Position numbers and translations under genes: made by a program. Below are positions 14,291 through 50,863 of a stretch of DNA of 64,000 nt, in pieces. Under the pieces are notes generated by a model. It did no database searches and was not told the DNA's origin. It saw only the letters and a list, made by a program, of their open reading frames with translations. Source of the stretch: a virus (taxonomy: Duplodnaviria > Caudoviricetes). Each line of letters begins with the position of its first letter. The stretch's first letter is position 1. Location of the stretch: positions 22,883 to 86,882 of IMG/VR virus record IMGVR_UViG_2857083903_000001; one strand, written 5' to 3'.

Positions 14291-14322
14291 GCATTGCGGC
14301 CCCATGCCTACACGGGTATGGT
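14291..14322 (+). promoter_or_regulatory. Promoter/operator motif, copy 1
   Basis: gcattgcggccccatgc; TTGCGG-N17-TATGGT. Confidence 0.75.
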
Positions 14323-14357
14323 CAGTGTTGCAGGTCCCGCCGGAAGGGGAGTCGGAA

Positions 14358-14903
14358 ATGCACACCACGGTTCACGAACAGACGCAGGCCACGGAAATCC
14401 CGTGCCTCGCCTACGACATCAAGAACCAAGCCCCGACCCAGCGACTCGAAGCAGACGAGGCCGGAGACGCCGTCGTCAAGCACTTCCGCCGTGGCGCCAC
14501 CATCCACGAGTACGACACCACCGACCGTGATGGCATCCCCCTACACGTCGTCATCGCCACCACGGCCGATCAAGGCACCGTCTACGAGTTCCCCGAGACC
14601 CCCGCCACCGTCTCGACCGCATCCTCGCCGCAAGCCGCCACACCGGAGCCTCAGATCGCGCGGCCCGCCCCCACTGGCGCCTATGCTGCCGCCCTCAAGA
14701 CGTGCCGCGCCAAGGGCGCCACTCACGCCCCCGGCGATGCCCTCATGGCCGGACTGTGCCAGGACGTCGTCCAGATCCTCGCCGGCGCCGTCTCCCCGCA
14801 GCTCGTGTGGGAAGGCGCCGTCAAGAAGGGCCTGACTGCGAAGCAACTCCTGATCCTGTGCCATGCCGACTACGCGGCTGTCGATGACCTTCAGTGGGTC
14901 TGA
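14358..14903 (+). CDS. Hypothetical protein
   Basis: RBS GGAG, follows promoter copy 1. Confidence 0.65.
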   Translation: MHTTVHEQTQATEIPCLAYDIKNQAPTQRLEADEAGDAVVKHFRRGATIHEYDTTDRDGIPLHVVIATTADQGTVYEFPETPATVSTASSPQAATPEPQIARPAPTGAYAAALKTCRAKGATHAPGDALMAGLCQDVVQILAGAVSPQLVWEGAVKKGLTAKQLLILCHADYAAVDDLQWV

Positions 14904-14990
14904 TCCACCCGCCAGCCTTCACCACCGTCACCGAAGCACTCGCCCTCCTCGCAACCATCCGGCAACTCCGCTAGCCGAAAGGAACCCGCC

Positions 14991-15176
14991 ATGAGCACCG
15001 GCCGCATCCACGAGACCGACGCAGTGCAGCGAGGCGGCATCGGCCGCACTCTCCCCGTCACCGTCCTCACCGACGACGGCACCCACGCCGTCGTACGCGT
15101 CCAGGACAGCGGCCTGTACTTGAAGGCGGGTGACACCCGCACCGTTCCGTCCAGCATCATCACGCCGCAGCACTGA
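14991..15176 (+). CDS. Small hypothetical protein
   Basis: RBS AAAGGA. Confidence 0.6.
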   Translation: MSTGRIHETDAVQRGGIGRTLPVTVLTDDGTHAVVRVQDSGLYLKAGDTRTVPSSIITPQH

Positions 15177-15195
15177 CCCCCACACCCCCCGATCC

Positions 15196-15240
15196 GGCCC
15201 CGGCCGCCGTCCCCCTCGGCAGCCGGGGTCCTTCGTTTGT
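15196..15240 (+). terminator. Intrinsic terminator
   Basis: ggccccggc...gccggggtcc followed by a T-rich tail. Confidence 0.6.
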
Positions 15241-15252
15241 TCGAGGCACAGT

Positions 15253-15435
15253 TCAGTCGGCCGGCGTCCACGGCGGTGCGGGGCTGGTGCTTTCCCCACC
15301 ACAGAACCAGCAGGTGAACGTGTCCGGCGCCTGATACTTCTGTGTCCACCAGGACATCACCGGCTCGCACCAGACGGCACACTCTTCCCCGCACCAGCCG
15401 CACACGAAGACGAAGTCCACCCGACAGTCCCCCAC
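15253..15435 (-). CDS. Small Cys-rich (zinc-ribbon-like) protein
   Basis: CGWC...CWFC; start uncertain. Confidence 0.4.
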   Translation of the reverse strand: MGDCRVDFVFVCGWCGEECAVWCEPVMSWWTQKYQAPDTFTCWFCGGESTSPAPPWTPAD

Positions 15436-15514
15436 TTCGTACCGTCATGTCCTCGAGGCCATGGTCCCCCATCGCCTAGGGAACGACCGGCGGAAACAGC
15501 GGGACCCTGAGGAC

Positions 15515-15769
15515 ATGACCCCACCGATCCTCGCTTGCAAGGGCTGCGGCGCTACGAAGCCCGAACCTGACGGCACTCCCACCGACCTTTTCCCATCCGA
15601 GCACTGCGGCGACTGCCCGCCCTGGACGTGCGAAGACTGCGGAGCGACCTGCTCCGCTACGGCCCTCTGCTCCTGCTGGACAAGCCTCAACGACATGACC
15701 ACCGCAGACATCAAGGCAATCTTCGCCACAGACGGAACCTTCAACCTGCGGCCGGTGATCGAACCATGA
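15515..15769 (+). CDS. Cys-rich hypothetical protein
   Basis: Several CxxC motifs; RBS GAGG. Confidence 0.55.
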   Translation: MTPPILACKGCGATKPEPDGTPTDLFPSEHCGDCPPWTCEDCGATCSATALCSCWTSLNDMTTADIKAIFATDGTFNLRPVIEP

Positions 15770-16134
15770 CCAGCCGCCCCATGGTGGGCGTCGGCATGCC
15801 GGCTGCCCTCCACCTCGAAGCGTTCGGCCGGGAGATCGACGCCGCGTTCGGGCACCTCCCGTACCTCGTCGGCACTGCAGCCGTCGGCAAGCAGTGGCGC
15901 GACGTAGACGTCCGCCTCATCCTCCCCGACGAGGAGTTCGACACTCTGTTCCCGGCCGTTGATCCGGAACAGCCTGACGGCCGGTGGGGCCTACTGTGCG
16001 CGGCCCTGTCCGAACTCGCCCGCCAGCGCACCGGCCTCCCTGTCGACTTCCAGATCCAGCGCATGAGCGTCGCCAACGACCGCTACCCAGGTCCGCGTCT
16101 CGCCCTCGGCATCCACGACAGGAATGGCCAGTAG
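15766..16134 (+). CDS. Minimal nucleotidyltransferase-like protein
   Basis: YLVGT...RDVDVR...VDFQ, resembling the hG[S/T]-DxD-D pol-beta motif. Confidence 0.55.
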   Translation: MTSRPMVGVGMPAALHLEAFGREIDAAFGHLPYLVGTAAVGKQWRDVDVRLILPDEEFDTLFPAVDPEQPDGRWGLLCAALSELARQRTGLPVDFQIQRMSVANDRYPGPRLALGIHDRNGQ

Positions 16135-16169
16135 GAACGGCACGGAGCGATCGGGCTGGCCCGCACGCT

Positions 16170-16385
16170 CTACGCCGCGGTGCCTGGTCCGGCTTCGCGT
16201 GGGTCTCCGATGGGCCGGGTGAGTGCGTCGTCTGTGAGCAGCCGGCGTTCGGGTGCGGTGGCGTCCAGCTCGAAGTAGTGGAGGCATTCTTCGCAGCGGA
16301 CGCCGTCGATGAGGACCTCGTCCTCGGCGTTGGGGCAGTCGGTGCCGTCTCCGCGTCCGGGGCATCGTTCGCGTGTGTCTGCCAT
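16170..16385 (-). CDS. Small Cys-containing hypothetical protein
   Basis: CPG..CPN..CEEC. Confidence 0.4.
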   Translation of the reverse strand: MADTRERCPGRGDGTDCPNAEDEVLIDGVRCEECLHYFELDATAPERRLLTDDALTRPIGDPREAGPGTAA

Positions 16386-16565
16386 GGGTTGACGGTGCGT
16401 CGCCTGCCGGGGGTGTGGGAGTGGGCGTGGTGGGGCGCACGGGTGTGCGGGTCGGGCAGGGCGGCACTTTGGTGGTCTGGAGTCTCACTGGCCTGGTGTG
16501 AGGGCCTGTCTGGTGGGTGTTGGTGGTTGGGCGGTGAGGGTTCCTGCCCACTCATCCCCGCATGG

Positions 16566-16597
16566 GCATTGTGGCCCCATGCTTAGAGCGGTATGGT
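16566..16597 (+). promoter_or_regulatory. Promoter/operator motif, copy 2
   Basis: gcattgtggccccatgc; TTGTGG-N17-TATGGT. Confidence 0.75.
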
Positions 16598-16719
16598 TGC
16601 AGTCCCTCCCCCACCACCCAACCCCACCTGCGGCCACCCGCAATCAGGCGGAGGGAACAAACCCACACCCCCACGGCACGATCAAAGCCAACGCCCCCAC
16701 CCACACCGGGAGGCCACCC

Positions 16720-17016
16720 ATGAAGGTCCGCGCCGACGTCGCCGAACTCATCTACCAAGGCTTCAACAACGCCGAGATCCGTGAACGCACCGGACTCTCC
16801 GGACAGGCCATAGGCGCCGCACGCCGCCGCCTCCAGCGCCCCAACGCCCCCACCCGCCGCGACACCACCGCCCTCGAGCGGCTGTACGCCGAAGCCCTGC
16901 CGACCGGCCGGGTCAAGGACTGGAAGCCCGCCACCGGCCGCACCCCGCTCTCCCCCGCCCAGCAGCGCGCCAACCGGGAACGGCTCCTCGCCGCCCTACG
17001 CGAACCCGCCGCCTAG
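16720..17016 (+). CDS. HTH-like hypothetical protein
   Basis: 'GFNNAEIRERTGLSGQAI'; RBS GGAGG. Confidence 0.6.
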   Translation: MKVRADVAELIYQGFNNAEIRERTGLSGQAIGAARRRLQRPNAPTRRDTTALERLYAEALPTGRVKDWKPATGRTPLSPAQQRANRERLLAALREPAA

Positions 17017-17047
17017 CCCGCCACGACCCGACACCGCGGAGACGTAC

Positions 17048-17593
17048 ATGACCGCCACACCTCCCACCACCCAAGCCATCGAAGGCCGCCGCGTCACCCT
17101 CAACTACACCAACAACCCCAAAACACACCCCGGTGTCATCACCCGAACCGAGACCACCACCAACGGGGTCCTGCTCACCCTCGTCCGCCTCGACGGCCAC
17201 CGGTCCAGCATCGCAATCCCCGCCGACCACGACGGCCTCCGCTACCTCAACGAGGTCGGCCCGATCCCCGACCTGCCCATGGGCCGCTTCCAGCCCAGCA
17301 CACGGCATCCCGCCATGGACTGGGAGTACGACGGCGTCATCGTCCTCGAGTTCGAAGACGGTGACATCGCCGCGATCACCGGAGACCGCATCAAGGCCGT
17401 CGCCGCGGTCGCCACCTACCTCCGCGAGCGACACGACCTCGACGAGACCGCCATCGGCAAGGAACTGGTCGAGCTGAAGTTGAAGGAGGTCGTTTTCGAG
17501 TGGGAGCCCGAGGGCGCCGAGTGTGCCTGGCTCATGCAGTGGGCTGACCGCGACCCCGAGGCCCTGCCGGTCCACTACCTGCCCTCGTTGTGA
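17048..17593 (+). CDS. Hypothetical protein
   Basis: RBS GGAG; codon bias. Confidence 0.65.
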   Translation: MTATPPTTQAIEGRRVTLNYTNNPKTHPGVITRTETTTNGVLLTLVRLDGHRSSIAIPADHDGLRYLNEVGPIPDLPMGRFQPSTRHPAMDWEYDGVIVLEFEDGDIAAITGDRIKAVAAVATYLRERHDLDETAIGKELVELKLKEVVFEWEPEGAECAWLMQWADRDPEALPVHYLPSL

Positions 17594-17784
17594 CTCGCTG
17601 CCGTGGGTGTGGTCGTCGTCTGTCCCGCCCGTCCCCGACCGGATTCGGGCCCGTCTGCGCCCGCCGCCAAGGCATCACCCGACGCCGGCCAGCACCCGTG
17701 CGCCTGCCACCCGCACCCGACACCGTGCCCGGCCAGACCGAGATACCGCTCTACGTCCACCAGCCCACCCTCTGGTCAGCCTGA
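17590..17784 (+). CDS. DUF6011-like zinc-finger protein
   Basis: CRGCGRRL...GFGPVC. Confidence 0.6.
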   Translation: MTRCRGCGRRLSRPSPTGFGPVCARRQGITRRRPAPVRLPPAPDTVPGQTEIPLYVHQPTLWSA

Positions 17785-17883
17785 CCGACCCGCAGACGCC
17801 CGCACAGCCCCACCCCCGACCCAGACACCACCCCACCCCGTGAACACGCCCCACACAGGCGCACAGACCCGAAAGGCAGACAC

Positions 17884-18363
17884 GTGACCGACATCGCCAA
17901 CCCCACCGACTGGTCCGACTACGACTTCCTGGAGTTCGAAGGCTTCGTCTCCAAGGTCGAGAACGAAGGCTTCACCTACGCCGCCGAGGAGTACAGCCCC
18001 AAGTTCGAAAGCCCCGAACTCCAGGCCATCGCCAACGACTTCGGCAAGCTGCGCGCCTTCTACCTGGAGCACGAGCCGAAGATCGACGCCTGGTACCAGC
18101 AGGTCGGCCCGGAGCGCGCTTGCGACCTCCACAACGCCCACGTCGACGAGGAGCGCCAGCGCCGCGAGGACGCCTGCCTGTTCGGCATCCGCTGCACCGA
18201 CGGCCAAGTGATCACCTGCGGTAGCGAGCAGTACCGGGATCAGCTCTCCGCCGACCTGCTAGCCCGAGAAGGCAACGGCTGGCGCGTTCCCGAAGCCCTC
18301 CTCCGCCGCGACACCCCCGGCGGCCAGTGGACCGACGAACGCCCCGCCCGCCCCGCCGCCTGA
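17884..18363 (+). CDS. Hypothetical protein
   Basis: RBS AAAGG; codon bias. Confidence 0.65.
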   Translation: MTDIANPTDWSDYDFLEFEGFVSKVENEGFTYAAEEYSPKFESPELQAIANDFGKLRAFYLEHEPKIDAWYQQVGPERACDLHNAHVDEERQRREDACLFGIRCTDGQVITCGSEQYRDQLSADLLAREGNGWRVPEALLRRDTPGGQWTDERPARPAA

Positions 18364-18411
18364 CCTGCGGTTCCGCGCCCGCACCCCACCCCAACACACC
18401 CGGAGGAAACC

Positions 18412-19413
18412 GTGAAGATCCCGCCCGCGCTCCTCGCCACACTGAAGGACCGCGCCCACACCGACGGCAACCGGCTCACCCTCACCGGCCCCCGCCTGGA
18501 CCCGCGCACCTACCAGCAGATCAACGAGATCCTTGAAGCCGTCGGCGGCCGATGGACCTCCAGCGAGGGCGCCCACCTGTTCCCCACCGACGCCGACACC
18601 GCCCTGGCCCCCGTGTACGCCACCGGCAGCGTCGTCACCCTGCGGGAGAAGCGGCAGTCCGCCCAGTACTTCCCCACCCCGAAGCCCGTCGTCCAGCGGC
18701 TCATCGACCTCGCCAAGCTCACGCCGGGCGTGCGGGTGCTGGAGCCGTCCGCCGGCTCGGGCGCCATAGCCGGTGCCGTGACCGAGGCAGGCGCAACCGT
18801 GGACTGCATCGAGCGCGACCCTGGCTACGCCGCCGTCCTCGCCGACGCCGGACACCAGGTGCACGCCGCCGACTTCCTCACCGTGCCCGCCGAAGCTGCC
18901 TACGACCGGGTGGTGATGAACCCGCCCTTCACCAAGGGCGCCGACATGCAGCACGTCGAGCACGCGCTCAGGTTCCTCAAGCCCGACGGGCTGCTGGTGT
19001 CGGTCATGTCATGGACAGTGACCACCGAGTCCCGCGCCACCGCGAAGTTCCGGACGCTCGTCGAAGCCCGAGGCGGCACGGTCGAGGCGGTCGGCAAGGG
19101 CGCGTTCCGGGAGTCCGGCACCGACGTGCCCACCGTCATCGTCACCATTCCCGCCACCCGGCCGGCCGATGCGCAGCCCACCACCTGGCCCACCCGCAAG
19201 ACGCCGCCGGCCACGGAGTCAGAGTTCGAGGACCCGGCCGCTATCGCTGCCGAGATCATCGCCAGCCTGAAGGAAGCCACCGCCCAGTTCGAGAAGGTGG
19301 CCGCCGCCCTCGAACGGCCCGCACCGCCAACCCCGGCCCGCCCGGTGGACGTTGTGCCGCTTCCCCAGCGCACGCAGGACCAGCTGTTCTTCGACTTCGA
19401 CGGCGCCGCGTAG
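18412..19413 (+). CDS. SAM-dependent (probably N6-adenine DNA) methyltransferase
   Basis: QYFPTP, VLEPSAGSG, VMNPPF. Confidence 0.85.
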   Translation: MKIPPALLATLKDRAHTDGNRLTLTGPRLDPRTYQQINEILEAVGGRWTSSEGAHLFPTDADTALAPVYATGSVVTLREKRQSAQYFPTPKPVVQRLIDLAKLTPGVRVLEPSAGSGAIAGAVTEAGATVDCIERDPGYAAVLADAGHQVHAADFLTVPAEAAYDRVVMNPPFTKGADMQHVEHALRFLKPDGLLVSVMSWTVTTESRATAKFRTLVEARGGTVEAVGKGAFRESGTDVPTVIVTIPATRPADAQPTTWPTRKTPPATESEFEDPAAIAAEIIASLKEATAQFEKVAAALERPAPPTPARPVDVVPLPQRTQDQLFFDFDGAA

Positions 19414-19510
19414 TCGCGCCCCGGGGACTGCACCCCATGACCCGCGCACGGCTCGGCGGTGGAGCTATCACCGCCGAGCCGGCAGCCGAAACCCTACGAC
19501 TGGAGACCAC

Positions 19511-21174: not shown

Positions 21175-21220
21175 CCACCCACACCTCCAGCGCGCGGCGC
21201 TCCGACAGATAGGAAACCTT

Positions 21221-22705: not shown

Positions 22706-22717
22706 GGGCAACACACC

Positions 22718-22756: not shown

Positions 22757-23174
22757 CATGCAGACTACCCGGCACGCGCAGGCAGGCCGGAAAGGCATCA
22801 GGCGGGCCGGGATGGCGCGGGTGTGCTGGCGGCCGGTGTCGGGGCCCCTGGTGTAGGGCGGGAGGACACCGGCCGCAGTCAGACACGTTGCGAAGCAACC
22901 AGTAGGGGGCCGGTCCGATTGCCGCGCTGCGATTCCCCATAGGGAAACGGCTACCGAAACCGGTTACCCACCCGGTTTACCCGCAGACCCCCACCCGAGA
23001 AGCACCCCGACAGTAATTCGAACACCGCCACAGCACCCACAACCCCAGACAAGAGCCAGCACACGATCCCCAACAACCTGGCAGGCCAGGACCGCGCACA
23101 CCGATGATGCACCGGACAACTACCCGTTTTCCACGGAAGATTTTGAGGGGTAAACCTATGCTCACTACCTACAC

Positions 23175-23215: not shown

Positions 23216-24031
23216 GTGAACAAGGACGCACTTAAAAAGTTCCTCAAGGAACGGCGCGACGGTATAGCACCCGAATCCCTCGGCCTTACCCGGCCCGCCG
23301 CACGACAGGGACGCCGCTCCCTCGGCCTCGCCCAGGACCAGGTCGACGAACTCCTGAACCGGGCCCGCAACACCTACCAGAAGCTCGAAGCCGGCCGGTA
23401 CAAGAACCCGCCCGTCGACCTGCTCCGCGACATCGCCTGCCTCTACCAGCTCAACGAGCAGGAGTGGACCGCGCTGTGCCGGTACGCCCGCGGCGAGGAC
23501 CCGCCCACACCCCTCTACGACACCACCGGCTATGCCGTACCCGCGGCCTGGGAGGACGCCGTCACCCGGGTCGTCGCCCCCGCCTACGTCACCGACGCCT
23601 CCTGGACCGTCCTCGCCCACAACCAGCCGTTTGAGGACCTGTTCATCAGGGAGCCGCCAGCGAACACCATGCGGTGGATGCTCGTCTCTGGGAGGGAGCA
23701 ACTCATCGACTGGGAAGGCGCGTGGGCGCCGCTCGTCATGCCCCAGCTCAAAGCGGCTCTCGCCCAACGCCCCCAGGATCAGGTCCTCCGCGGGATCGAA
23801 ACCGACGTCTGCGCCGACCCGGCATCCAGAGCCCTGTACGAGAAGGGTGGGGCGTCGATTCACCCGGACGGGCATGAACGGCCGATCCGGCACGCCGTGG
23901 AGGGCGATGGCTGGGTGACGATGTGCGCGGCGCAGCCCATGGCCTCCCCCGGCGCCCGGTTCATGATCCTCATTTTTCGGCCGGACACCCAGCCCCCCAT
24001 GGACCGGCCGCCGCTCCTGAAAGCCCCCTGA
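23216..24031 (+). CDS. MmyB-family regulator (XRE HTH + PAS-like ligand-binding domain)
   Basis: LKKFLKERR..PESLGL..RR..GL; YQKLEAGR; PAYVTDASWTVLAHN; NTMRWML. Confidence 0.85.
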   Translation: MNKDALKKFLKERRDGIAPESLGLTRPAARQGRRSLGLAQDQVDELLNRARNTYQKLEAGRYKNPPVDLLRDIACLYQLNEQEWTALCRYARGEDPPTPLYDTTGYAVPAAWEDAVTRVVAPAYVTDASWTVLAHNQPFEDLFIREPPANTMRWMLVSGREQLIDWEGAWAPLVMPQLKAALAQRPQDQVLRGIETDVCADPASRALYEKGGASIHPDGHERPIRHAVEGDGWVTMCAAQPMASPGARFMILIFRPDTQPPMDRPPLLKAP

Positions 24032-24162
24032 GCAGCCAGTCCACCCATCTATGCCCCGATTCGACGGGCAGTCGGGCACCATGCCAGTACGGCAGAGGGA
24101 AACGTTCAAGCCATCTGCCGTACTTTGACCGGACCAGGTCACGTGTGTCCAAGGGGGGACCC

Positions 24163-25209
24163 ATGCCCGTCCGTATCAGCCAGCCCGTCACCATCCTCGC
24201 CGCCCACAAAGTCACGACCGCGGAGATAGCCGACGACATCCGCGCCCACCACCCGGACCATCCGCGGCTCGGCGCGATCCTCCGCGTCATCGACAACTGC
24301 GGCGTCGACTCCCGCTACTTCACGCAGCCGCTCACCGCGGACACCATCACCGGCACCGCCCCCATCGCCGACCGTGTCCGCCGCGCGTTCGCCGACGGCC
24401 TGGCCATGGCCGAGCAGGCCGCCCGCCGCATCCTCGACGAGCAGGGCCTCCAACCCGCAGACGTCACCGGGCTCATCACCACACACGCCACCGGCTGGGC
24501 CGTCCCCAACCTGGACGTCCACCTGGTGCACCGGCTCGGCCTCAGCCCGACCATCCGCCGCACCGCCCTCACCACCACAGCCTGCGCCGGCGGAGCCCAC
24601 GCCCTCATCCGCGCCACCGAGCAAGCCCTCCTGCACCCCGGCTCCCACGTCCTCGTCGTCGCCGCCGAAGTCCTCTCCACCTCCTACAACCATGCCGACA
24701 CCGGCATCGAGCACATGATCTACAAAGCCCTGTTCGGGGACTCCGCGGCCGCGACCATCGTGTCCTCCGACCCGCACGGCCCCGGCCTCCAGGTCGACGC
24801 TGACGGCTTGTTCGAGTACGCCATGCCAGGCTCACTGGACTACTACGCCGGCCGCATCGACAGCACCGGCCTCCACTTCGACTCCACGAAGCAAGCCTCC
24901 GGCGGCGCGAAGCAGGCGATGCCCGCCGTCATCGACTGGCTCGACGGCCGCACCGTCGACACACCCGTCATCCACCCCGGCTCCCGGCCGATCATCCTCG
25001 ACACCGCGACCGCGCTCGGCATGACCGAGCACGATGCACGGCACTCCCTGGACACCCTCACCACCGAAGGCAACCTGGGTGGGGTAGCCGTACTCCGGGT
25101 CCTGGAACGCACCCACGACGACCCGCCCGCCGCCGGGGCGCAGGCACTGGTGGTGGCGTACGGGCCAGGATTCACCGTGTCCGCCCTCCACGGCGCCTGG
25201 ACCAACTGA
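24163..25209 (+). CDS. Type III polyketide synthase (PhlD/RppA-like)
   Basis: Catalytic Cys (ACAGG), His (IHPGS), Asn (EGNLG); LFGDSAAA; YGPGFT. Confidence 0.9.
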   Translation: MPVRISQPVTILAAHKVTTAEIADDIRAHHPDHPRLGAILRVIDNCGVDSRYFTQPLTADTITGTAPIADRVRRAFADGLAMAEQAARRILDEQGLQPADVTGLITTHATGWAVPNLDVHLVHRLGLSPTIRRTALTTTACAGGAHALIRATEQALLHPGSHVLVVAAEVLSTSYNHADTGIEHMIYKALFGDSAAATIVSSDPHGPGLQVDADGLFEYAMPGSLDYYAGRIDSTGLHFDSTKQASGGAKQAMPAVIDWLDGRTVDTPVIHPGSRPIILDTATALGMTEHDARHSLDTLTTEGNLGGVAVLRVLERTHDDPPAAGAQALVVAYGPGFTVSALHGAWTN

Positions 25210-25297
25210 GGTAGCCAGCCTGGCGCGCTGCCTGGCGGCATGCGCGCCGGCATCCAGCGGAGGGAACAACCGGCCGGATCAGCGGCACCGTAGAGGC

Positions 25298-25720
25298 ATG
25301 ACCACGCCCCCGCCCCAGGCCATCATCCACCGCATAGAACTTCCCATCGACGACCGCCCCCACGGCATCGACCTCACCGGCGAGATCCTCCACACCGCCA
25401 TCCGCCGCCCCAACGTCGTGGACGTCTGGTACCAGGCCCGCCCAGCCGGCATGGACCCGATGCGGCGCAGCTTCCAAGTCGTCGGCACCGGCCAGCCCAT
25501 CCCCACCCACCTCGGCTTCTACATCCATGCCGGCTACAAGGGCACCGCGATCACTCCCGACGGGCAACTGGTGTGGCACGTCCTCGAGAACTGGTGCCCG
25601 CACCCGAACATCGTCGAGACCACCGAACTGCGGGACAAGCCCGGCTATGGCACTGGCATCTGCGAGTGCTGCCCTGTCGTCCTCCGTGGTGATGGCAACG
25701 GCGGCTGGCTGCCGATCTGA
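25298..25720 (+). CDS. Hypothetical protein
   Basis: 'RSFQVVGTGQPIP...LVWHVLE'; RBS GAGG. Confidence 0.65.
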   Translation: MTTPPPQAIIHRIELPIDDRPHGIDLTGEILHTAIRRPNVVDVWYQARPAGMDPMRRSFQVVGTGQPIPTHLGFYIHAGYKGTAITPDGQLVWHVLENWCPHPNIVETTELRDKPGYGTGICECCPVVLRGDGNGGWLPI

Positions 25721-25762
25721 GCAGAGGGAACACGGCGGCGTTTCGTGCCCACACTGAAGGGC

Positions 25763-26527
25763 ATGCCTCAGCCCAAACCCGCACGAATACGCCGCACCCT
25801 CACCGCCCTCACGGCAGCCGACCTCACCGCGGCCGCGCTGCTCCTCGCCTCCGCCACCGACACCCGCGCCGCCACCACCACACCCGTCTACAAGGGCACC
25901 GGCTGGAAAGCGGAGACCGGCAGCGGCATCTTCAGCCTCTCGCCCGACCCATACACGATCGTCTTCGCCGACACCACAGCCCGGACCAAGCTCACCAGCT
26001 ACCTGACAGCGCCGGCCGCGCAGGTCACCGGCAGCGTCGGTGTCCCCGTCACCGTGTCGACCAGCCTCGACACCACACCCACCAGCGCCTGTCCGGCCCG
26101 GCACCGCATCGTCGTCCACTACCTGTACCGGCCCATGAACGTGAGCGGCATGAGCCAGGCCCTGCCCTGCCACAACACCGGTGACGGCTCCGCGTGGGGC
26201 GGCCACATCCTGATGGACTCGGAGTACTGGACGTCCAGCACGTGGTTCTCCACGAACGTCACCACGAACGAAGCCCGCCGCAAGGACGCCGTCACCCACG
26301 AACTCGGGCACATCCTCGGCTTGGACCACCCCAACACCGACCTGGACAAGGACGGAGTGGTGGAGAACGGCGAGTGCGTGAAGTCCACGGCCGGCCGCAA
26401 GCCGATCCTGTGCTCACCGAACCGTGGAGTCCCGGCCGCCACGGACGGCGGCAGGTTCACCACGGAGTACGACCTACCCGGCCTGCGGCAGATGCTCGCC
26501 AACTACTACCTACGGCAGACCACGTAA
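25763..26527 (+). CDS. Secreted zinc metalloprotease (metzincin/matrixin-like)
   Basis: Signal-like N-terminus; HELGHILGLDH. Confidence 0.8.
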   Translation: MPQPKPARIRRTLTALTAADLTAAALLLASATDTRAATTTPVYKGTGWKAETGSGIFSLSPDPYTIVFADTTARTKLTSYLTAPAAQVTGSVGVPVTVSTSLDTTPTSACPARHRIVVHYLYRPMNVSGMSQALPCHNTGDGSAWGGHILMDSEYWTSSTWFSTNVTTNEARRKDAVTHELGHILGLDHPNTDLDKDGVVENGECVKSTAGRKPILCSPNRGVPAATDGGRFTTEYDLPGLRQMLANYYLRQTT

Positions 26528-30571: not shown

Positions 30572-30603
30572 ACCATACCGGTTTAGGCATGGGGTCACAA
30601 TGC
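30572..30603 (-). promoter_or_regulatory. Promoter/operator motif, copy 3
   Basis: Reverse complement: gcattgtgaccccatgc; TTGTGA-N17-TATGGT. Confidence 0.75.
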
Positions 30604-30676
30604 TTGAGACGGATTGGGTGCAGACACACAAGAGGGGCCCGACCACACGGCCAGACCCCTCACACAACACCGCAGG

Positions 30677-36761: not shown

Positions 36762-36793
36762 ACCATACCCCTCTAAGCATGGAGTCACAATGC
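36762..36793 (-). promoter_or_regulatory. Promoter/operator motif, copy 4
   Basis: Reverse complement: gcattgtgactccatgc; TTGTGA-N17-TATGGT. Confidence 0.75.
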
Positions 36794-36867
36794 TTTCTCG
36801 GGGTTGGGTATGAGAAAGGGGCCCCCGCCCGTCACAGGCGAAGGCCCCACTTGAACTCAGCAGCAGG

Positions 36868-38862: not shown

Positions 38863-38864
38863 GG

Positions 38865-42877: not shown

Positions 42878-42890
42878 GGTTGGTCTCCGT

Positions 42891-44177
42891 TCAGAAGGCG
42901 GGGGCGAGGGTGTTACGGCGGGCGTTGATGGCCTCGAGGGCGAGGGTCTGATCGACGAGCCGGCTGGTGTAGAGGCGGCGGGCGTACTGCTCGCCGGCCA
43001 GTTCGATCGTGGTGAGGAGCAGGCCGGGGTCGGCCATGGCGTCCAGGCGCATCTGCACGACCTCCTCGGAGGTGAGGTCCTCGAGGTCGAGCGGGCTGTC
43101 TTCGACGGGCGTGGTGTCGGCGGCAAGGCGGCCGCTGATCGTGTTGAACGCCACGTCCCAAGCGCGGCGGGCAGCGGCGCTCTGGGGGCCTGCACCGAGG
43201 TCGCTGTAGTCGGGCTCGGCGTGGCGCTCCTGCGCGGCGTGCTGGGAGTCCTCCCACATGGCGACCAGCTCGGCCCGCTTGGCGGGGGTGTCGAACACGA
43301 GGTGCTTGGAGGCGAGGCGGGAGGCGAGCAGTCCGGAGGGCCGGGAGACACCGCGGGCGGGCAGGGGGGTGAGTTCGGCGGCGGCCTGGATCTCGCGGGC
43401 GGTCCAGCCCTGGTCGGTGAACTTGCGGATGACCCAGGCGATGCGTTCGCGGTTGGCGTGCTGCAGCCAGGTGACGGTGCGGATGAGTTCTCCGGCTACC
43501 TGGAAGCGGCGGCCGATCTTGTTCAGCTTCCGGGGCCTGTGGTTGGACTTCTTCGGGGTGGGGGACTTTGCCTGCCCGCTTGCGAGCTTGCTCTCAGGGG
43601 GGGAGTTAGTACTAGCCGCAGAAGAAGTGCCAGTAGTACCACCCTCCATTGGGGTGCAACGCGGTCCCTTCGAAGAGGGGGTGCGGTGGCGGGGGCGGCG
43701 GGTCTTCCGGGCGGCCTTCTTCGCCAGCTTCCCCAGCAGGGTCCGGGACTCTTCGGCGGCGCCGATCGGGCGGCGCGTTGCACCCTCGCCGATGGTGCGG
43801 ATACCGAGCGCGTGGTCGAAGGCGGCGGGGATGACGCGCTCGAACTCGGAGGCGCGGCCGCCGATGCCGCTGATGCGGGTGCCCTTGGTCCGGTAGACGA
43901 GGAGTCCGGCTTCGCGGAGCATCCCGAGGTGGTACTGGACGGTGCGTTCGGCGACCTTCAGCTTGCGGGCGAGGTAGTCGACGGATGGCCGGCATTCCTT
44001 GAGTGCGGCGATCTCCTGGGCGATGGCGATGGTGGTGGTGCCCCAGCGGGGGCCGTGGGTGCGGGCGGGGGTGTAGAGGCCGCTGCCGGCGATCCAGTGG
44101 ACGGCGGTCATCCAGGAGTGGGGGCAGGTGGTGATGCGGCCGCTGGTGGTGTGGAGCCACTGTTGTGTGGGGGGCAC
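42891..44177 (-). CDS. wHTH protein, probable plasmid replication initiator (start uncertain)
   Basis: CRPSVDYLARKLKVAERTVQYHLGMLREAGLL; adjacent to dciA/parAB. Confidence 0.55.
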   Translation of the reverse strand: MPPTQQWLHTTSGRITTCPHSWMTAVHWIAGSGLYTPARTHGPRWGTTTIAIAQEIAALKECRPSVDYLARKLKVAERTVQYHLGMLREAGLLVYRTKGTRISGIGGRASEFERVIPAAFDHALGIRTIGEGATRRPIGAAEESRTLLGKLAKKAARKTRRPRHRTPSSKGPRCTPMEGGTTGTSSAASTNSPPESKLASGQAKSPTPKKSNHRPRKLNKIGRRFQVAGELIRTVTWLQHANRERIAWVIRKFTDQGWTAREIQAAAELTPLPARGVSRPSGLLASRLASKHLVFDTPAKRAELVAMWEDSQHAAQERHAEPDYSDLGAGPQSAAARRAWDVAFNTISGRLAADTTPVEDSPLDLEDLTSEEVVQMRLDAMADPGLLLTTIELAGEQYARRLYTSRLVDQTLALEAINARRNTLAPAF

Positions 44178-45334: not shown

Positions 45335-45677
45335 GCGACTGCGGGGGTAGAAGTGACAGGGCCCGTGTGCGTCGGCGGTGTGATCTTCACGCCAGATACG
45401 CGGAAACTTCGGGCTGCCCTGCCTACGTGGTCGGGACCACGGGTACGCTTGGCCATTGTCGGCACCTTCGGTTGAGTGTGGTGTCGGCCCGGCCCCGCTC
45501 CTGATGTTTGCCGCATCAGGGTTACAGCGGGGCCGTTCCTTATTGTCTTGTGGCGTCGGACTGCATCTGACTGCATGTCTGGCGCAGGCACCAGCCTACC
45601 CGTTGACCCCGCCATCTGTCTCCGGTCCTTCCCCTTGTGTCTCTCATGCGACTTGTCACACCGTTCGTGACGGTGTA

Positions 45678-46112
45678 TCAGCGTCCGCGCTCCGACTCGC
45701 CGTCCGCCGGATGACGCCCCTCCACCGGAGCCACCAACCGCCGCGACCTGGCCGACAACCCGCCCATCGCGTTGAACCCCACCTCCTCGAACACGCCCTG
45801 CACCCGCGCCATCTCATCCGCGAACAGACGCGGCGCCGACGACAACCTCCCGGCATAGAAGCCCACCGCCAACGCCCGATCCCACACCGCTTGAATCAGC
45901 GCCGGGTCCTGGTCAGCCCATATATCCACCGCGAGCTTGTCCGGGCGTCCCGCCGTCGCCAGCTCCGCATGCGCCAACAGACCCGCCAGGAACTCCCCCG
46001 ACGACATCGCCCGCCCCGCCAGCACCGCATCCCGGCACATCACCTCGAACCCCGCCTCCTCCCCGCCATCCACGGCGGCGTCCACGGGCGTGGGGGTGTG
46101 GTTCTCGGTCAT
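45678..46112 (-). CDS. Hypothetical protein
   Basis: ATGA overlap; RBS GGAG. Confidence 0.6.
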   Translation of the reverse strand: MTENHTPTPVDAAVDGGEEAGFEVMCRDAVLAGRAMSSGEFLAGLLAHAELATAGRPDKLAVDIWADQDPALIQAVWDRALAVGFYAGRLSSAPRLFADEMARVQGVFEEVGFNAMGGLSARSRRLVAPVEGRHPADGESERGR

Positions 46113-46945
46113 GCGGCAGCTCCCAGGTTGGAGGGGATCAGAGACTCGAACGACAACTGGCCCGGCAACACCGGAACCTGACCGGGCATGACCCGGACCT
46201 GCGGACGGCGCGGCCGGCTGGTCGGGGTGCGGCGCGGCCGCGGGACCGGCAGCACAGCCACCGGCGGGACCTTCGTCGGCGGCGGCACCGCAGGCACCGT
46301 GCCGTCATCCGCCACCACAACCACCCCCTCCAGCAGCCCCCGCTCACGCGCCACCGCCAGAGCCCGCATCCGTGTCACGTCCTTCGGCAACCCCAGCAAC
46401 CGGACAAGCTGCGACCGCTGCCAATTCGCCGTCCGCACATCCACCCCGCCCGCAGGGCCCTCCCCCCACACCGCCAGCAACCGAGACGCCTCCCTCGCCA
46501 CCTGGAACGGCTCCCACACCACGGCCAGCGCCGCCAACACAGCCCGCTTCTGCGCCGTCCCGAACGCCGCCCTCGGCGCCGCCACCGTGGCGACCCGCCG
46601 CTTCACCAACGCCCGATGCCGCTCCAACGACCGCCGGCCACCCCACACCCCATCCGGCTCCGCCAACTTCCCGTCCACCGTCACCGACGAGGCATACGCA
46701 TCGCACTGCACCATCACCGGACACGCCACACACACCGCGATAGCCGCAGCCTCACGCTCCAGACGCTCCCGCTGCCCCTCCGCCTCAAAAGCGTCCGGCC
46801 CGTGATGCGCCCCCACCGGCAGCCGCGTGTCGCCAGCCATCCGCGACGGGTCATCCACATCCGGAGCACACCCCCGATACCGGAACCACCGGTGCTCCAG
46901 CCACCTCCGCCGCAATTCCTCACTACTCAACGCTGCTGCACTCAC
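46109..46945 (-). CDS. WhiB-like protein with C-terminal extension
   Basis: C...CVACPVMVQC...GVWGG. Confidence 0.7.
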   Translation of the reverse strand: MSAAALSSEELRRRWLEHRWFRYRGCAPDVDDPSRMAGDTRLPVGAHHGPDAFEAEGQRERLEREAAAIAVCVACPVMVQCDAYASSVTVDGKLAEPDGVWGGRRSLERHRALVKRRVATVAAPRAAFGTAQKRAVLAALAVVWEPFQVAREASRLLAVWGEGPAGGVDVRTANWQRSQLVRLLGLPKDVTRMRALAVARERGLLEGVVVVADDGTVPAVPPPTKVPPVAVLPVPRPRRTPTSRPRRPQVRVMPGQVPVLPGQLSFESLIPSNLGAAA

Positions 46946-47217
46946 CGGGAGCCTCCCTCCGACACCGACACCGGCCCACACGACCCACACCCACACGCAC
47001 GCCCCGCCACCACCCGCTCCAGACGGCGCCGAAACACCTCCACATCCCGCACCAGACACCCCTCCACCAGCCCGTGAGACGCCCGCTCCCGCACCAACAC
47101 CCGCCGAAGACGCCGCCTCTCACGACACCCCCACACCGCCACCCACACAGCCGCCACACCCACCACGACGGCCCGAACGCGAACCGCCACCGCGGCCACC
47201 TCCTCCACTCGGGAAAC
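46942..47217 (-). CDS. Possible small membrane-anchored protein
   Basis: GTGA overlap with the next gene; very G/T-rich, start uncertain. Confidence 0.35.
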   Translation of the reverse strand, partial: VSRVEEVAAVAVRVRAVVVGVAAVWVAVWGCRERRRLRRVLVRERASHGLVEGCLVRDVEVFRRRLERVVAGRACGCGSCGPVSVSEGGSR

Positions 47218-47265
47218 ACAAAGGCCGGACCCGCACACCGCGAGCCCGGCCACCACCAGAGCTGA

Positions 47266-48864
47266 TCACGCAGCAGCCACGAACCCGCTGCTCTCCGACC
47301 GGCTTATCTCCTCACCCGTGATCGCCTCCACCAGCGCGCACACCAGGACCTCGGCGGCGTTCGGCGTGACGGCGTTGCCGTACTGCCGGACCTTTTCCCG
47401 CTTGTTACCGAGGACTATGTAGTCATCGGCGAAGCTCATGGCCCGCCCGATCTCGTGAGGCTCGAGCATCCGGAACAGAACGTCGTCGATGTCGACCTCC
47501 CCCCGCACCAGCGCATACCGGTCGCGGGTGGTGAGCGCGCCGATCGGCTCGTTGACGGACCGCGGGGCGCCGGTGCCGTAGTACGGGATCAGCATGTTCT
47601 CAGAGGCACCGGCCGGGGCGACGAGCCCGTGATGGTTACCGGACGCCGTCACAGTGGCGAGGGACTCGCCCACCGACCGGGCGACAGAGCCGCCGCCGCG
47701 GAGCTCCGCGATGAACGGCAGCCACGCCAACCCCGTCTCGTTCCGGGTCGTCATCGTGCGCAGCGGCCCGTGCGCCGAAGCAGCATCCTTCCCATCCCGG
47801 CCCTCCACCGGGACCAGGAGCGGCGGCACCATCAGCGCATCGTTCTCGCGGGTGGTACGGGCAGGCATCGGCTCCCCGACACTGACCGCCGCGTCCCGCC
47901 AGGTACCGCCGGCCGGAACCATCATCGGGACCGGGCGGGCGAACTTCTTCAACCCGGCCTCGATCCGCCTGAGGGTCTTCTCCGCAAGCGGCTTGGCACG
48001 GTCACCGATGCGCTGACCGGGGATCGACCAGTCGATCGCTGCGGCGGCCGGGAGAGCCTCCGGCTCGACGACCTGGTTCCGGCACGAAGTGTTCGGACAC
48101 CGGTAGACGTACTGCTGCCGGTAGCGGCCCATGTCCCGCTTGGGGTCCTTGAACATCTGCATGGCCTGCACCCACGTGTCGCAGCCGGAGCACCAGGCGC
48201 GCGGCCGCAGCCACTTGTCCCAGTCGGGGGTACGACCCAGCGACTCGTGCCAGTAGCCGACGTACAGGCGGTCGCGGGATTGTGGCGCCCGGTGCACGGA
48301 CCGCGGGTTGGCGTGCATCGAGTTCAGGGCGATGATCCGGGTGCGGTATCCGAGCTTGTGGATCTCACCGATCCAGCGATCCCACTGGTCCCAGGCGCGG
48401 ACGTCGACGACGTTCTCGACGATCCCGGCCTTGACCAGGCCGCCCCGCTCGATCACGCCGCGCAGATACAGCGGCACCTCCTCCATCAGCGCACGGGACT
48501 CCTCCTCCGCGGTCGGCTGCTCCTCCTCGTCGTCGAGGCCGGCGAGGAGGTCGAGGAGGCTGCCCTGCATGGCGTTCTGGAAGTCCCGCTTCTTCCCCTT
48601 GGCCACCGACCAGTTGGTGCACTCCGGGGACGCCCAGAAGATGTCGGTGACGGGCCAGTCCCACACCGGCGCCTTACGGATGTCGCCCTGGTAGTGACTG
48701 GTCTCCGGGAAGTTCTCAGCGTGCGACTCAATCGCAAGCCGCCAATGGTTCGCCGCTCGCGCCACCCGGACGCCAGGCACAGCGTGGACGCCCTGCGAGG
48801 ACCCGCCAGCACCACAGAACCAGTCCATGACCGTGAGCGCGTTGTCATCGTTGCGGTAACCCAT
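47266..48864 (-). CDS. C5-cytosine DNA methyltransferase
   Basis: DWFCGAGG, SPECT, VENV, QSRDR, QYGNAV. Confidence 0.9.
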   Translation of the reverse strand: MGYRNDDNALTVMDWFCGAGGSSQGVHAVPGVRVARAANHWRLAIESHAENFPETSHYQGDIRKAPVWDWPVTDIFWASPECTNWSVAKGKKRDFQNAMQGSLLDLLAGLDDEEEQPTAEEESRALMEEVPLYLRGVIERGGLVKAGIVENVVDVRAWDQWDRWIGEIHKLGYRTRIIALNSMHANPRSVHRAPQSRDRLYVGYWHESLGRTPDWDKWLRPRAWCSGCDTWVQAMQMFKDPKRDMGRYRQQYVYRCPNTSCRNQVVEPEALPAAAAIDWSIPGQRIGDRAKPLAEKTLRRIEAGLKKFARPVPMMVPAGGTWRDAAVSVGEPMPARTTRENDALMVPPLLVPVEGRDGKDAASAHGPLRTMTTRNETGLAWLPFIAELRGGGSVARSVGESLATVTASGNHHGLVAPAGASENMLIPYYGTGAPRSVNEPIGALTTRDRYALVRGEVDIDDVLFRMLEPHEIGRAMSFADDYIVLGNKREKVRQYGNAVTPNAAEVLVCALVEAITGEEISRSESSGFVAAA

Positions 48865-49781
48865 CAGGCCGCCCCCCGTTCCCCGTTGTCCTGCGCCTGC
48901 TGCCCGAGCCGACTGATCTGGTTGTTCAGCAACTCCCGGAACGTCACCACCGACTGGTCCCTCAGCGTCACCTCCGCCTCGGCGACACCGTGCTTCTCCG
49001 CGTCCAGGACGATCTGACCCAGCGCATCCGAGTTCCCCCAGCACGACGACGCCTGACCCTGCAGCCGCGCCAGATGATCGACCCCGTCAGCATGGGCGGC
49101 CTGCGCCGGCGGCTCCTCCACATCCACGGAAGGCGCCTGCGGTTCCGGCTTCACCGGCGGGTCCACCGGCACCGGCTCCGGCGCGGCCTGCCGCTGCCAC
49201 TCACTCGGCGGATGAGCCGCAGAGAACTGCACCACCGCGTCACGAGAACCGTCGTTGTACAACGACAGCCCGAACTGGTCACCCAAGTTCGTCGCACAGC
49301 GCTTCACCGCCTGCGAGAGGCTCGTCTTCATCGCCATGTCGTGGGCATCGCCCACCGACGGCTGGTTCACCGCGTCCCCGGCAGCCCCGTCCTCCCAGTG
49401 GGAGATCTCCCGCCCGCTGGTGTCGTAGATGGTCAGCCGGACCTGGGCGCGGTAGACGACCGTCCAGGCCGTGAACGGGTCGCCGTAGTACTCGCCCTGC
49501 TTGTTCTTCCGCCGGAAGCCCTCCTGCCCGTGGTTGTGCACCAGGTCCAGAGAGAGCGTCTCGATGGAGAAGCCACCGAAGCCGAAGATGCGGATGAGCT
49601 GGCGCCGGACGTCCCAGGCTTCGAGGTGAGCCAGCCCGCGAAGGTTCTGGACCCGGTTCGGGTTGATGCCACCGTGCAGCAGGCGGAGCTGCGGGGCAGT
49701 CAGCCGGGCGACCTGATTTTGGGTGTGCGAGGTGGGGCCCTCCGCCATCGTGCCAGCGGGGGCCTCAATGGCCTGAGCCAT
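48864..49781 (-). CDS. Rad52/Sak-like single-strand annealing protein
   Basis: LIRIFGFGGF, AMKTSLSQAVKRCATNLGDQFGLSLY. Confidence 0.85.
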   Translation of the reverse strand: MAQAIEAPAGTMAEGPTSHTQNQVARLTAPQLRLLHGGINPNRVQNLRGLAHLEAWDVRRQLIRIFGFGGFSIETLSLDLVHNHGQEGFRRKNKQGEYYGDPFTAWTVVYRAQVRLTIYDTSGREISHWEDGAAGDAVNQPSVGDAHDMAMKTSLSQAVKRCATNLGDQFGLSLYNDGSRDAVVQFSAAHPPSEWQRQAAPEPVPVDPPVKPEPQAPSVDVEEPPAQAAHADGVDHLARLQGQASSCWGNSDALGQIVLDAEKHGVAEAEVTLRDQSVVTFRELLNNQISRLGQQAQDNGERGAA

Positions 49782-49867
49782 GAGGGATCTCCTATGAGGT
49801 TGTACTCAACGAAGAGGTGGCGGCCGGCCCGGCCACATCACAGGCCAGCCCACACCCCGGAATCGAC

Positions 49868-50671
49868 TTAGTCGGGCATCCCGAACTGGTTGATCAACAC
49901 CTGCCGCAGGATCGTGCCGGGGAAGACGCGAGCACCCAGCTCCTTCGACAGCTCAGGCGCGAGCTCATGCAACGCGGTGCGCTGCGAGTCCTCCACCCGA
50001 ACCGGAAGGGTGTTCCACCCGGTATCAGCCCACGTGTGCTTCGGGAACCGAACCGGCTTCGGCATCGACCACGAGCCATCCAGCAACTCGCTGATCCCCT
50101 TAGCCGCAGCCTGCTCCAGCGAAACACCCGAAGACTCGGAAGCAGACCGGAAGTGCGCGATCACAGGCTCCGGCAAGTACAGCTTCATATCGAGGCCGGT
50201 ACCCCTGTCCACCCCCAGCTCGCTGCACGCGTACGCCATGATGATGCCGCCCTCACTGATCCGACGGCCCTCCTGGTCCGACAGACGCGGCAACTCGGCC
50301 TGGAGACGCCCCCGGAGCTCGGCGTTGACGTCCACCGACAGCACCGCCCGCTTCAGACCGGTGCCCTTCAGGCGCCGCTGCCCCGTCTTCGGGGGAAGCC
50401 ACTCACCGGACAGGACCTTCTCGTACGCCTCCTCAGCCACGATCCGAATCGACGTCTCGAACTCGTCGAGCGCGTCCTGCAACGCCGCCTTCAGTTCGTC
50501 ATCCGTGGAAACGCTCAGAGGGGAGGTGGCAGCCGGGTCGGCAGTCTGCTTCAGCTTGTTCCATCCGCCAGGGGCCAGCAGCGTCTCAATGGCCTGAGCC
50601 CACTCGTGATGGCCTTCCTGCCTCAGATGCCGGGCGCCGGCGGCCGCACTCGAACGGAGGGAGCCTGCCAT
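49868..50671 (-). CDS. Putative DNA-binding regulator (repeated RHH-like segments)
   Basis: LSVSTDDELK, LSVDVNAELR, LPVRVEDSQR segments; RBS AAAGGA; operators upstream. Confidence 0.5.
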   Translation of the reverse strand: MAGSLRSSAAAGARHLRQEGHHEWAQAIETLLAPGGWNKLKQTADPAATSPLSVSTDDELKAALQDALDEFETSIRIVAEEAYEKVLSGEWLPPKTGQRRLKGTGLKRAVLSVDVNAELRGRLQAELPRLSDQEGRRISEGGIIMAYACSELGVDRGTGLDMKLYLPEPVIAHFRSASESSGVSLEQAAAKGISELLDGSWSMPKPVRFPKHTWADTGWNTLPVRVEDSQRTALHELAPELSKELGARVFPGTILRQVLINQFGMPD

Positions 50672-50758
50672 GGGGCGGGGTCCTTTCTTCGGGCGCCCGT
50701 TTGGCGGGTGGCCAGGCGGGCGCGTGGGGGAGTTTGCCACGCCAGTGTCCTCCAGTCT

Positions 50759-50863
50759 GCATTGCGACGCCATGCCTAGATTGCATGGTGGTCGGGGCGG
50801 CGCCCCAACACCACAGACAATACCGTTCTAGGCATTGCTTGGCAATGCGTATCTCGGTATGGT
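50759..50863. promoter_or_regulatory. Divergent promoters with operator copies 5 and 6
   Basis: gcattgcgacgccatgc at 50759; perfect GCATTGC-N3-GCAATGC at 50832-50848; TTGCTT-N17-TATGGT on + and TTGCCA-N17-TATTGT on -. Confidence 0.75.

Follow-up and report, generated by a model that had tools for sequence, protein, structure and literature searches.

What protein reads a 17-bp palindrome that recurs at promoters scattered along 64,000 nucleotides of viral DNA, and what does it do there? The stretch in question, positions 22,883 to 86,882 of IMG/VR record IMGVR_UViG_2857083903_000001 and called the window below, corresponds to C2:22883-86882 of genome G000 and is part of an 86,882-bp plasmid contig (C2); the chromosome in the same genome is 6.34 Mb. 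An initial annotation of this DNA had reported six copies of the motif over -35 boxes, and had proposed that an uncharacterized ribbon-helix-helix (RHH)-like protein encoded nearby is an autoregulated master repressor of the early genes. The observation is confirmed here and extends to a whole group of related elements, and sequence comparison appears to support the architecture of the interpretation well. Taken together, the evidence seems best explained by an element-encoded RHH protein of 290 amino acids (aa) that represses itself and the promoters carrying the operator, an explanation that we hold somewhat more strongly than we doubt it.

In DNA sequence the element resembles circular Streptomyces plasmids of 85-93 kb as well as phage ZL12. 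Judged by this similarity, the 86.9-kb element is a pZL12/phiZL12-type Streptomyces phage-plasmid, and the window (GC content ~0.69) is most of it.

The operator motif is far too frequent in the window to be a chance occurrence. Pattern GCATTGNNNNNCMATGC has seven matches there, compared with a mean of 0.02 in shuffled sequences, and 0 of 100 shuffles reached seven; the seven matches represent six sites, since one is a perfect palindrome and is counted on both strands. The six copies of GCATTG-N5-CMATGC that had been claimed are thus all present, but two of them had been placed at 30572 and 36762, which are the low ends of minus-strand -10 boxes; the palindromes themselves lie at 30587-30603 and 36777-36793. 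When a weight matrix built from the six sites was run over all of C2, the six scored 25-32 bits and nothing else reached 12 bits, so the full-element motif scan that the annotation had called for yields a sharply bounded set, with no operator in the structural or lysis gene blocks and none in the 22.9-kb structural part outside the window. The operator is best written as two 7-bp subsites, GCAWTGC-N3-GCAWTGC, whose centers are 10 bp apart and each of which (GCA-W-TGC) is itself two-fold symmetric. The sites and the features around them are as follows.

14291..14307, plus strand: operator A GCATTGCGGCCCCATGC, over the -35/spacer region of a rightward promoter.
14317..14322, plus strand: -10 box TATGGT, 9 bp past operator A; heads the operon that starts with gene 14325-14903 (start uncertain).
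16566..16582, plus strand: operator B GCATTGTGGCCCCATGC, found by pattern match and weight matrix.
16592..16597, plus strand: -10 box TATGGT, 9 bp past operator B; heads the operon at 16.6-22.7 kb.
30587..30603, minus strand: operator C GCATTGTGACCCCATGC in minus-strand reading, found by pattern match and weight matrix.
30572..30577, minus strand: -10 box TATGGT of leftward promoter C; heads the operon from 30.5 to 26.7 kb.
30632..30661, minus strand: terminator-like hairpin of 13 pairs, directly upstream of promoter C.
36777..36793, minus strand: operator D GCATTGTGACTCCATGC in minus-strand reading, found by pattern match and weight matrix.
36762..36767, minus strand: -10 box TATGGT of leftward promoter D; heads the g61 operon from 36.7 to 30.7 kb.
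36818..36848, minus strand: terminator-like hairpin of 14 pairs, directly upstream of promoter D and kept in the alignment of 12 elements.
50832..50848, no strand assigned: O1, the perfect palindrome GCATTGCTTGGCAATGC, common to two back-to-back promoters.
50858..50863, plus strand: -10 box TATGGT of the rightward O1 promoter; heads 50896-53679.
50817..50822, minus strand: -10 box TATTGT of the leftward O1 promoter (TTGCCA-17-TATTGT), pointing to the RHH gene.
50759..50775, no strand assigned: O2 GCATGGCGTCGCAATGC, in the reading direction of the RHH gene; distance to O1 73 bp.
50749..50753, minus strand: Shine-Dalgarno sequence GGAGG, 8 nt before the GTG start of the RHH gene, kept in 12/12 elements.
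49868..50740, minus strand: gene of the 290-aa four-RHH protein, GTG start.
50896..51234, plus strand: first gene of the divergent operon, 112 aa, phrog_10890 by PHROG match.

Five of the six sites are followed by N9 and (GG)TATGGT and so lie, as had been claimed, within TTGNNN-N17-TATGGT promoters, with exactly nine bases between the end of the operator and TATGGT at each. At the perfect palindrome there is a TATGGT 9 bp to the right and a TATTGT 9 bp to the left on the other strand, and O1 is thus part of a bidirectional promoter; the reverse promoter that had been noted here (50845-50817) was recovered by a consensus promoter scan. The 50759 copy is different: it is followed by N8 and CATGGT, its end lies 5 nt from the Shine-Dalgarno GGAGG and 18 nt from the GTG start, and in relatives it has no -10 box, so that it is better described as an operator close in front of the ribosome-binding site of the gene than as part of a conserved promoter. 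With a 17-bp spacer, and a transcription start assumed ~7 nt past the -10 box, the operator in the other five promoters spans about -38 to -22.

We compared 12 elements, namely the window's own and 11 relatives. Four of the latter (G001-G004) came from a protein search in genome contigs, five (G005-G009) from a motif scan of viral contigs, and two, W01 (NZ_CP109172.1) and W02 (phage ZL12), from DNA similarity. In all 12 the same order is found: divergent gene, -10 box, 9 bp, O1, 9 bp, TAnnnT, GC-rich hairpin, O2, GGAGG, 8 nt, GTG. O2 is recognizable in 10 of them (it is degenerate in G004 and G009). In the window, the hairpin of the RHH-gene leader is the GC-rich GGGGCGCCGCCCC at 50776-50816 (minus strand), with the leftward -10 box on one side and O2 on the other; most of the 12 elements have retained it, and no T-run follows it. 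Each element has 3-7 operator copies, O1 and O2 included, with 2-4 dispersed operator-promoters, and the same operator is thus found at several unlinked promoters as well as at that of the presumed regulator.

The number of exact sites follows the plasmid contigs (5-6 each) and not the host chromosomes (0-1 each). G002 has six, all on its plasmid contig, and G003 has six on the plasmid and one elsewhere; W01 has one exact and three near sites, and G001 has five sites with one or two mismatches, three of which, the dispersed ones, read GCATTGC..GCCATGT. The whole of G000 has seven sites, the six on C2 and one on the 6.34-Mb chromosome, against two for a reversed-pattern control. The chromosomal copy (C1:2835217-2835233; locus L003 1501-1517) is the perfect palindrome GCATTGCGATGCAATGC, the same sequence as dispersed sites in G006 and G008. 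The two open reading frames around it are on the same strand and leave a gap of 48 bp, and neither of its sides has a -10 box at N9; given this and the control count of two, we treated it as chance and not as a regulon member.

Two of the relatives carry operators of other types. In phiZL12, GTATTGC-N3-GCAATAC stands at three dispersed promoters, a fourth reads GTATGGC..GCAATAC, and O1 and O2 are represented by related N4-spaced 18-mers beside the gene; compared with the main type, only the outer triplets differ (GTA/TAC), and both half-sites have changed alike. A third type, CYATKGTG-N2-CACMATRG, occurs at three promoters of G004. In several elements, element-specific inverted repeats flank the 17-mer (TCATAC..GTATGA in W01, GTTCAG..CTGAAC in G009), and given these repeats the real operator footprint may be ~29 bp. 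A recurring sequence, GTATGGAGAGGCCATGG (ATATGG... in G009), matches a relaxed form of the pattern in G003, G007, G008, G009 and W01 and was left out of the counts; its copies (e.g., G003:C14:91410) have identical flanks and no -10 box, and it is probably a conserved coding sequence that mimics the relaxed pattern. The window itself has a two-mismatch relative of the motif, CCATTGGGGTGCAACGC, at 43646-43662, inside the gene of a 464-aa helix-turn-helix (HTH) protein (probably Rep). G003 and G004 have it too, again flanked by agggtggtac; instead of serving as an operator, it could be an origin or iteron element.

Is the palindrome an operator at all, or only part of a good promoter? It might be argued that a strong 35-bp promoter cassette has been copied around the element, with the palindrome incidental and no dedicated regulator, since the window copies agree over the entire block, CCATGC-yTAnA-nnGGTATGGTgg included. 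The relatives make this scarcely credible. At each of the 42 one-way sites tabulated in the 12 elements, 9 bp separate the operator from TAnnnT (the direction of these sites being assigned by that same -10 box), but the -10 hexamer differs by element (TATGGT, TACGGT, TACAGT, TAGTCT, TACTGT) while the palindrome stays. O2 keeps the palindrome beside the RHH gene with no conserved -10 box, and the two half-sites of phiZL12 have changed symmetrically. For these three reasons we favor the reading that the palindrome is a protein operator, beyond a bare promoter.

The half-sites also differ in a way that points to RNA polymerase. At one-way sites the half distal to the -10 box keeps TTG in 40/42 cases and the proximal half in 18/42 (Fisher p = 2e-7), and at the bidirectional O1 both halves have TTG in 11/11 (the degenerate O1 of G004 being left out). 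Such a bias by orientation also counts in favor of a protein-binding site; it fits the distal TTG as a working -35 element, and it would fit a protein that tolerates T or G at that position, with TTG needed where RNA polymerase reads the -35 region. An operator lying over about -38 to -22, whose distal TTG is the -35 element, should block RNA polymerase when occupied. The opposite sign has also to be considered, in which the RHH protein or another factor would activate transcription by bringing in RNA polymerase where a proper -35 contact is missing. Some RHH proteins do activate, T4 MotA acts from about -30, and the promoters here have -35 hexamers that are weak apart from TTG; the leftward O1 promoter is the only one picked out by the consensus scan. 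We nonetheless consider activation very unlikely, as the TTG bias fits a working -35 element covered by protein, the spacer is the optimal 17 bp, and the place of O2, downstream of the promoter of the RHH gene, suits repression.

The operons under these promoters are conserved along with the sites, as was seen when 3 kb downstream of every operator-promoter in the 12 elements was compared by blastx with the window proteins. The g61 operon has an operator-promoter in 12/12 elements, 81-87 nt before the g61 homolog, even where the operator itself differs (phiZL12); when the twelve g61 upstream regions are aligned, terminator, operator, -10 box and ribosome-binding site/start are kept, and little else is. 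The RHH gene, followed by a recombinase, has an operator-promoter in 12/12, the g48/g46/g45 operon in 10/12, and the divergent operon with g81 in 10/12. In the window, operon B includes a DNA methyltransferase-like gene (18412-19413); operon C encodes a small Cys-rich protein and DUF4326, LuxR-type, NERD and DUF6233 proteins; the g61 operon encodes Cys-rich small proteins, RusA, WhiB-HTH and HTH proteins and SSB; and the divergent operon encodes the 112-aa basic protein, a Mom-like/XF1762-type protein and an integrase-like 285-aa protein, with two small genes. The first gene past operator B (16597-17016, plus strand) was called with a TTG start that is unlikely, as it overlaps the -10 box; a probable start is near 16721 (ribosome-binding site GGGAGG, MKVRADV...), and the product looks like a short HTH protein, NAEIRERTGLSGQAIGAARRRL.

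Which protein, then, binds the operator? The RHH gene had been delimited as 49868-50671, but its start is most likely GTG 50740 and not ATG 50671, the start that many gene callers choose as well; the product is then 290 aa long. When this reading was used in tblastn, the alignment began at residue 1 in 11/12 elements (residue 3 in G007), and the Shine-Dalgarno sequence in front of that GTG is conserved, as given above. The 25 N-terminal residues (MANAPTxRPPG..GRRPPRGPRP) are the best-conserved part of the protein, and in a search of representative proteins the matches start in many cases at profile position 25 and in others at 1. Residues 1-25 (50672-50740, minus strand) form a basic, proline-rich arm, MANSPTRPPGHPPNGRPKKGPRP, whose GRP/RGP cores are reminiscent of AT-hooks.

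The protein is indeed uncharacterized, as had been said. Window genes were called by third-codon-position GC content (GC3) and then scanned against Pfam and PHROGs (99 window proteins in the Pfam scan); the 290-aa protein has no Pfam match even at E 10 and none in NCBIfam or PHROGs, a PDB profile search gave nothing meaningful (best E 0.016, to a designed protein), and the named members that were looked up are called "hypothetical protein". It is not a CI/LexA-type repressor by its domains, since it has no HTH or Peptidase_S24 match in Pfam, and no S24 domain is found in any of the 99 window proteins scanned. A word-indexed search returned five relatives and a profile search 249 representative clusters at E <=0.001, a family with long (~260-320 aa) and short (~157-200 aa) forms. 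Among the 12 elements there are eight long proteins (284-297 aa) and four short ones (182-192 aa, one tandem pair).

The RHH character that had been suggested is borne out by structure prediction, which the initial annotation had proposed as a check, except that the protein is not a simple RHH protein and has four units per chain. An AlphaFold2 model (predicted local distance difference test score 82, predicted template modeling score 0.63) has three helices and then four beta-alpha-alpha units, each the strand and two helices of an RHH unit: E49-57/H58-70/H75-88 and E108-116/H117-134/H140-152, then E161-167/H168-181/H185-198 and E219-225/H228-245/H251-263 (residue numbers of the 267-aa form). 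In VIA-align comparisons, where Z values below 8 can reflect a common arrangement, residues 156-267 match a chain of the F relaxosome with Z 8.4 (root-mean-square deviation 3.5, 97 aligned) and permuted single-chain Arc (1u9p) with Z 6.0, and residues 50-170 match DndE with Z 5.9; AvtR (4.6) and VirC2 (3.9) are weaker. The first ten Foldseek rows are the same F-relaxosome chains (E 0.03-0.25). By our inference the matched relaxosome chains, E-G, are TraY, which is described as having an RHH dimer fold within one polypeptide, with three TraY molecules on the DNA (PMC12117103). The two halves of the protein align to each other (25% identity, E 8e-5), and this internal repeat, together with the top fold match, places two RHH repeats in one polypeptide as in TraY; the model thus makes it likely that the four RHH units of a chain are arranged as two pseudo-dimeric tandem-RHH domains, like F TraY or single-chain Arc.

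The location of the operators speaks for this protein as their reader. Only the RHH gene is flanked by paired O1 and O2, and this is so in 12/12 elements; the O1 palindrome overlaps its own promoter in all 12. To this extent the autoregulation and the master role that had been claimed are partly supported: the product is RHH-type and operators lie at its promoter, and we infer from these features that it is the binder, that its effect is repression and that it acts on early genes. Its place could in principle be taken by another protein, an element regulator common to all the relatives or a host factor, with the RHH protein acting, for example, only locally. Of the regulator-like genes tested, one WhiB-type gene, the gene of the 464-aa HTH protein and g61 are, like the RHH gene, found in 12/12 elements, and in G005 and W01 the hybrid half-sites described below show no simple covariation with the RHH protein. 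On the other hand, the paired sites flank no other gene, the scarcity of exact sites on host chromosomes argues for an element-encoded binder, and the operator type varies by element and not by host regulon; we know of no WhiB-like protein that reads palindromes alone. A different binder is therefore, in our estimation, improbable.

The first gene of the divergent operon is no better candidate. It is of the 112-aa basic g79 type in four elements and a WYL-domain protein in eight, and since these are two unrelated kinds it cannot be the common binder; g79, present in only 4/12 elements, was rejected as a general binder. The g79 model has a helix/beta-hairpin layout with no clear fold match (best Foldseek E 0.13). 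The swap takes place at what may be called the "cro position", with a start 46-50 nt past O1 and either the 112-aa protein (window 50896-51234, plus strand) or a WYL protein without HTH (for example, L012 2338-2796, minus strand).

Returning to the RHH protein as repressor, the operator and the fold suggest how it could work. Each tandem-RHH domain would lay its two-stranded sheet into one 7-bp subsite, and two subsites 10 bp apart, on one face of the helix, would suit two RHH (pseudo)dimers. The four triplets of the operator would match four RHH units, supplied by one long chain or by two short chains, and the half-length relatives would act likewise as homodimers. Non-identical units within a tandem pair would fit the phiZL12 operator, in which only the outer triplets differ. 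As the distal TTG would double as the -35 element of housekeeping-type promoters (TTG... N17 TAnnnT), the protein would shut five promoters, those of four dispersed operons and, at O1, that of the divergent operon; its own promoter at O1 would be closed as well, and O2, between this promoter and the ribosome-binding site, would give it a second site (negative autoregulation). The operons for replication, recombination, DNA modification and small proteins would then fire on entry into a cell free of the protein and be held down in the plasmid state. Two further ideas were rejected: a recognition code from the beta-strands, as the strands are too variable and the operator types too few, and O1-O2 looping by helical phasing, as the spacing varies.

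Several points weigh against this explanation. A search for sequencing runs that contain this DNA turned up no RNA run, only a soil metagenome with a 0.14 share of words. Because the motif was the criterion by which five of the 12 elements (G005-G009) were chosen, the motif counts of these five are not independent. The O1/O2 half-sites of G005 and W01 are hybrid (GCATTGC..GCAATAC), unlike the dispersed sites of the same elements, and a model with one protein and one specificity does not explain them. O1-O2 spacing is 73-79 bp across elements. A protein bound at an operator centered near -30 could, judged by position only, also be an activator. Rep, DciA and ParAB are encoded in the long leftward string of genes that begins with the RHH gene; tight self-repression would have to be squared with plasmid maintenance, presumably by way of internal promoters, which must exist in that case. 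No RHH model of Pfam matches the protein at the permissive threshold given above, the fold scores are middling (the best Foldseek E is 0.03), and for the relaxosome chains only the entry title is given, so that reading them as TraY is our own interpretation.

When the repression would matter is a separate question. The same protein and sites might serve a transient shut-off, or "establishment", function, with a burst of expression on entry followed by silencing, and a WhiB-type, LuxR-type, HTH or WYL factor would then decide between the plasmid and lytic states. P22 Arc and the zygotic-induction regulators of conjugative plasmids are analogs of such a regulator. Genes for DNA methylase, Mom-like, recombination and SSB functions, typical of entry or establishment, do occur in the controlled operons, the element encodes several further regulators, and the structural and lysis blocks have no operator, which means that late genes need another control. 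This reading predicts the same sites and the same autoregulation as a maintenance repressor, and sequence does not separate the two; we consider it unlikely, although not strongly so. The fuller form of the repressor explanation is more demanding, in that it makes the protein a natural "single-chain tetramer", with one unit per GCA/TGC triplet, and also the master plasmid/lytic (immunity) switch of the pZL12 group. Our judgment of it, which is somewhat on the side of doubt, is a joint one and also covers dimerization of the half-length form and the idea that variants such as GTATTGC..GCAATAC mark separate immunity groups.

Pfam and PHROG matches in the window include DnaB, SSB, RusA, Rad52, two WhiB-type genes, DciA and ParA/ParB, as well as three DNA methylase-like genes, a Mom-like gene, a tyrosine integrase, holin, endolysin and tail genes. 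The rest of C2 (22.9 kb) encodes portal, scaffold, major head, major tail, tape-measure and minor tail proteins, with no regulator among them. No relaxase was found among the window proteins in the general Pfam scan. Between two operator-controlled operons lies a cargo block (23216-26527) with an XRE/MmyB-like regulator, a type III polyketide synthase, a DUF7352 gene and a metallopeptidase-like gene. PMC4487206 gives a type III polyketide synthase for pZL12 and pSLE1 too, and describes pSLE1, from S. leeuwenhoekii, as syntenic with pZL12. A collagen-like triple-helix repeat protein is encoded at 59111-59791 (minus strand), adjoining the lysis genes (holin 60156-60512, endolysin 60548-61708).

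Among known systems, the arrangement would, by analogy, be a dispersed-operator regulon like that of P1 C1, with RHH chemistry of the Arc/Mnt/omega type. As with P1 C1, there would be one regulator whose 17-bp operator is scattered on a ~90-kb phage-plasmid over several operon promoters, including its own. P1 C1, however, binds asymmetric sites and is not known as an RHH protein, whereas here there is a two-subsite palindrome and a four-RHH chain with no family match, so no sequence relation is seen. P22 Arc and Mnt are autoregulated and cover a promoter with two RHH dimers, bound to neighboring subsites that are separated by about one helical turn; they are small chains that act as tetramers on DNA and control one local region (immI), and differ in this from the present protein, with four units per chain (two in the short form) and sites spread over 36 kb. 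F TraY, AvtR of an archaeal virus and VirC2 of the Ti plasmid have two RHH repeats per polypeptide as a pseudo-dimer, but only one tandem pair, where the present protein has two, with an N-terminal arm and a helical part; TraY and VirC2 serve DNA transfer, and the gene context here is a promoter regulon. Omega of pSM19035, like the protein proposed here, is an RHH repressor of several plasmid promoters, including its own, with repeated short subsites, but it is a small dimer reading runs of 7-bp heptads; every operator here has exactly two subsites and stands at a fixed distance from the -10 box. The repressor c of phiC31, a temperate Streptomyces phage, has a 17-bp inverted repeat at many early-region sites; it is a helix-turn-helix protein, and the sequence is not known to be related.

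Among the listings and abstracts from full-text searches, which do not include the original pZL12 paper, there is none that describes a regulator or operator for the pZL12 group. The present analysis gives this group a concrete, testable circuit of one protein, one 17-bp operator and five to six promoters with conserved target operons, and the promoter/operator parts could serve as tight Streptomyces switches. If the proposal is true, operator types would predict which elements exclude one another, that is, their immunity groups, and a chain with two tandem RHH pairs, existing beside a fission form, would be a case of evolution from oligomer to single chain.

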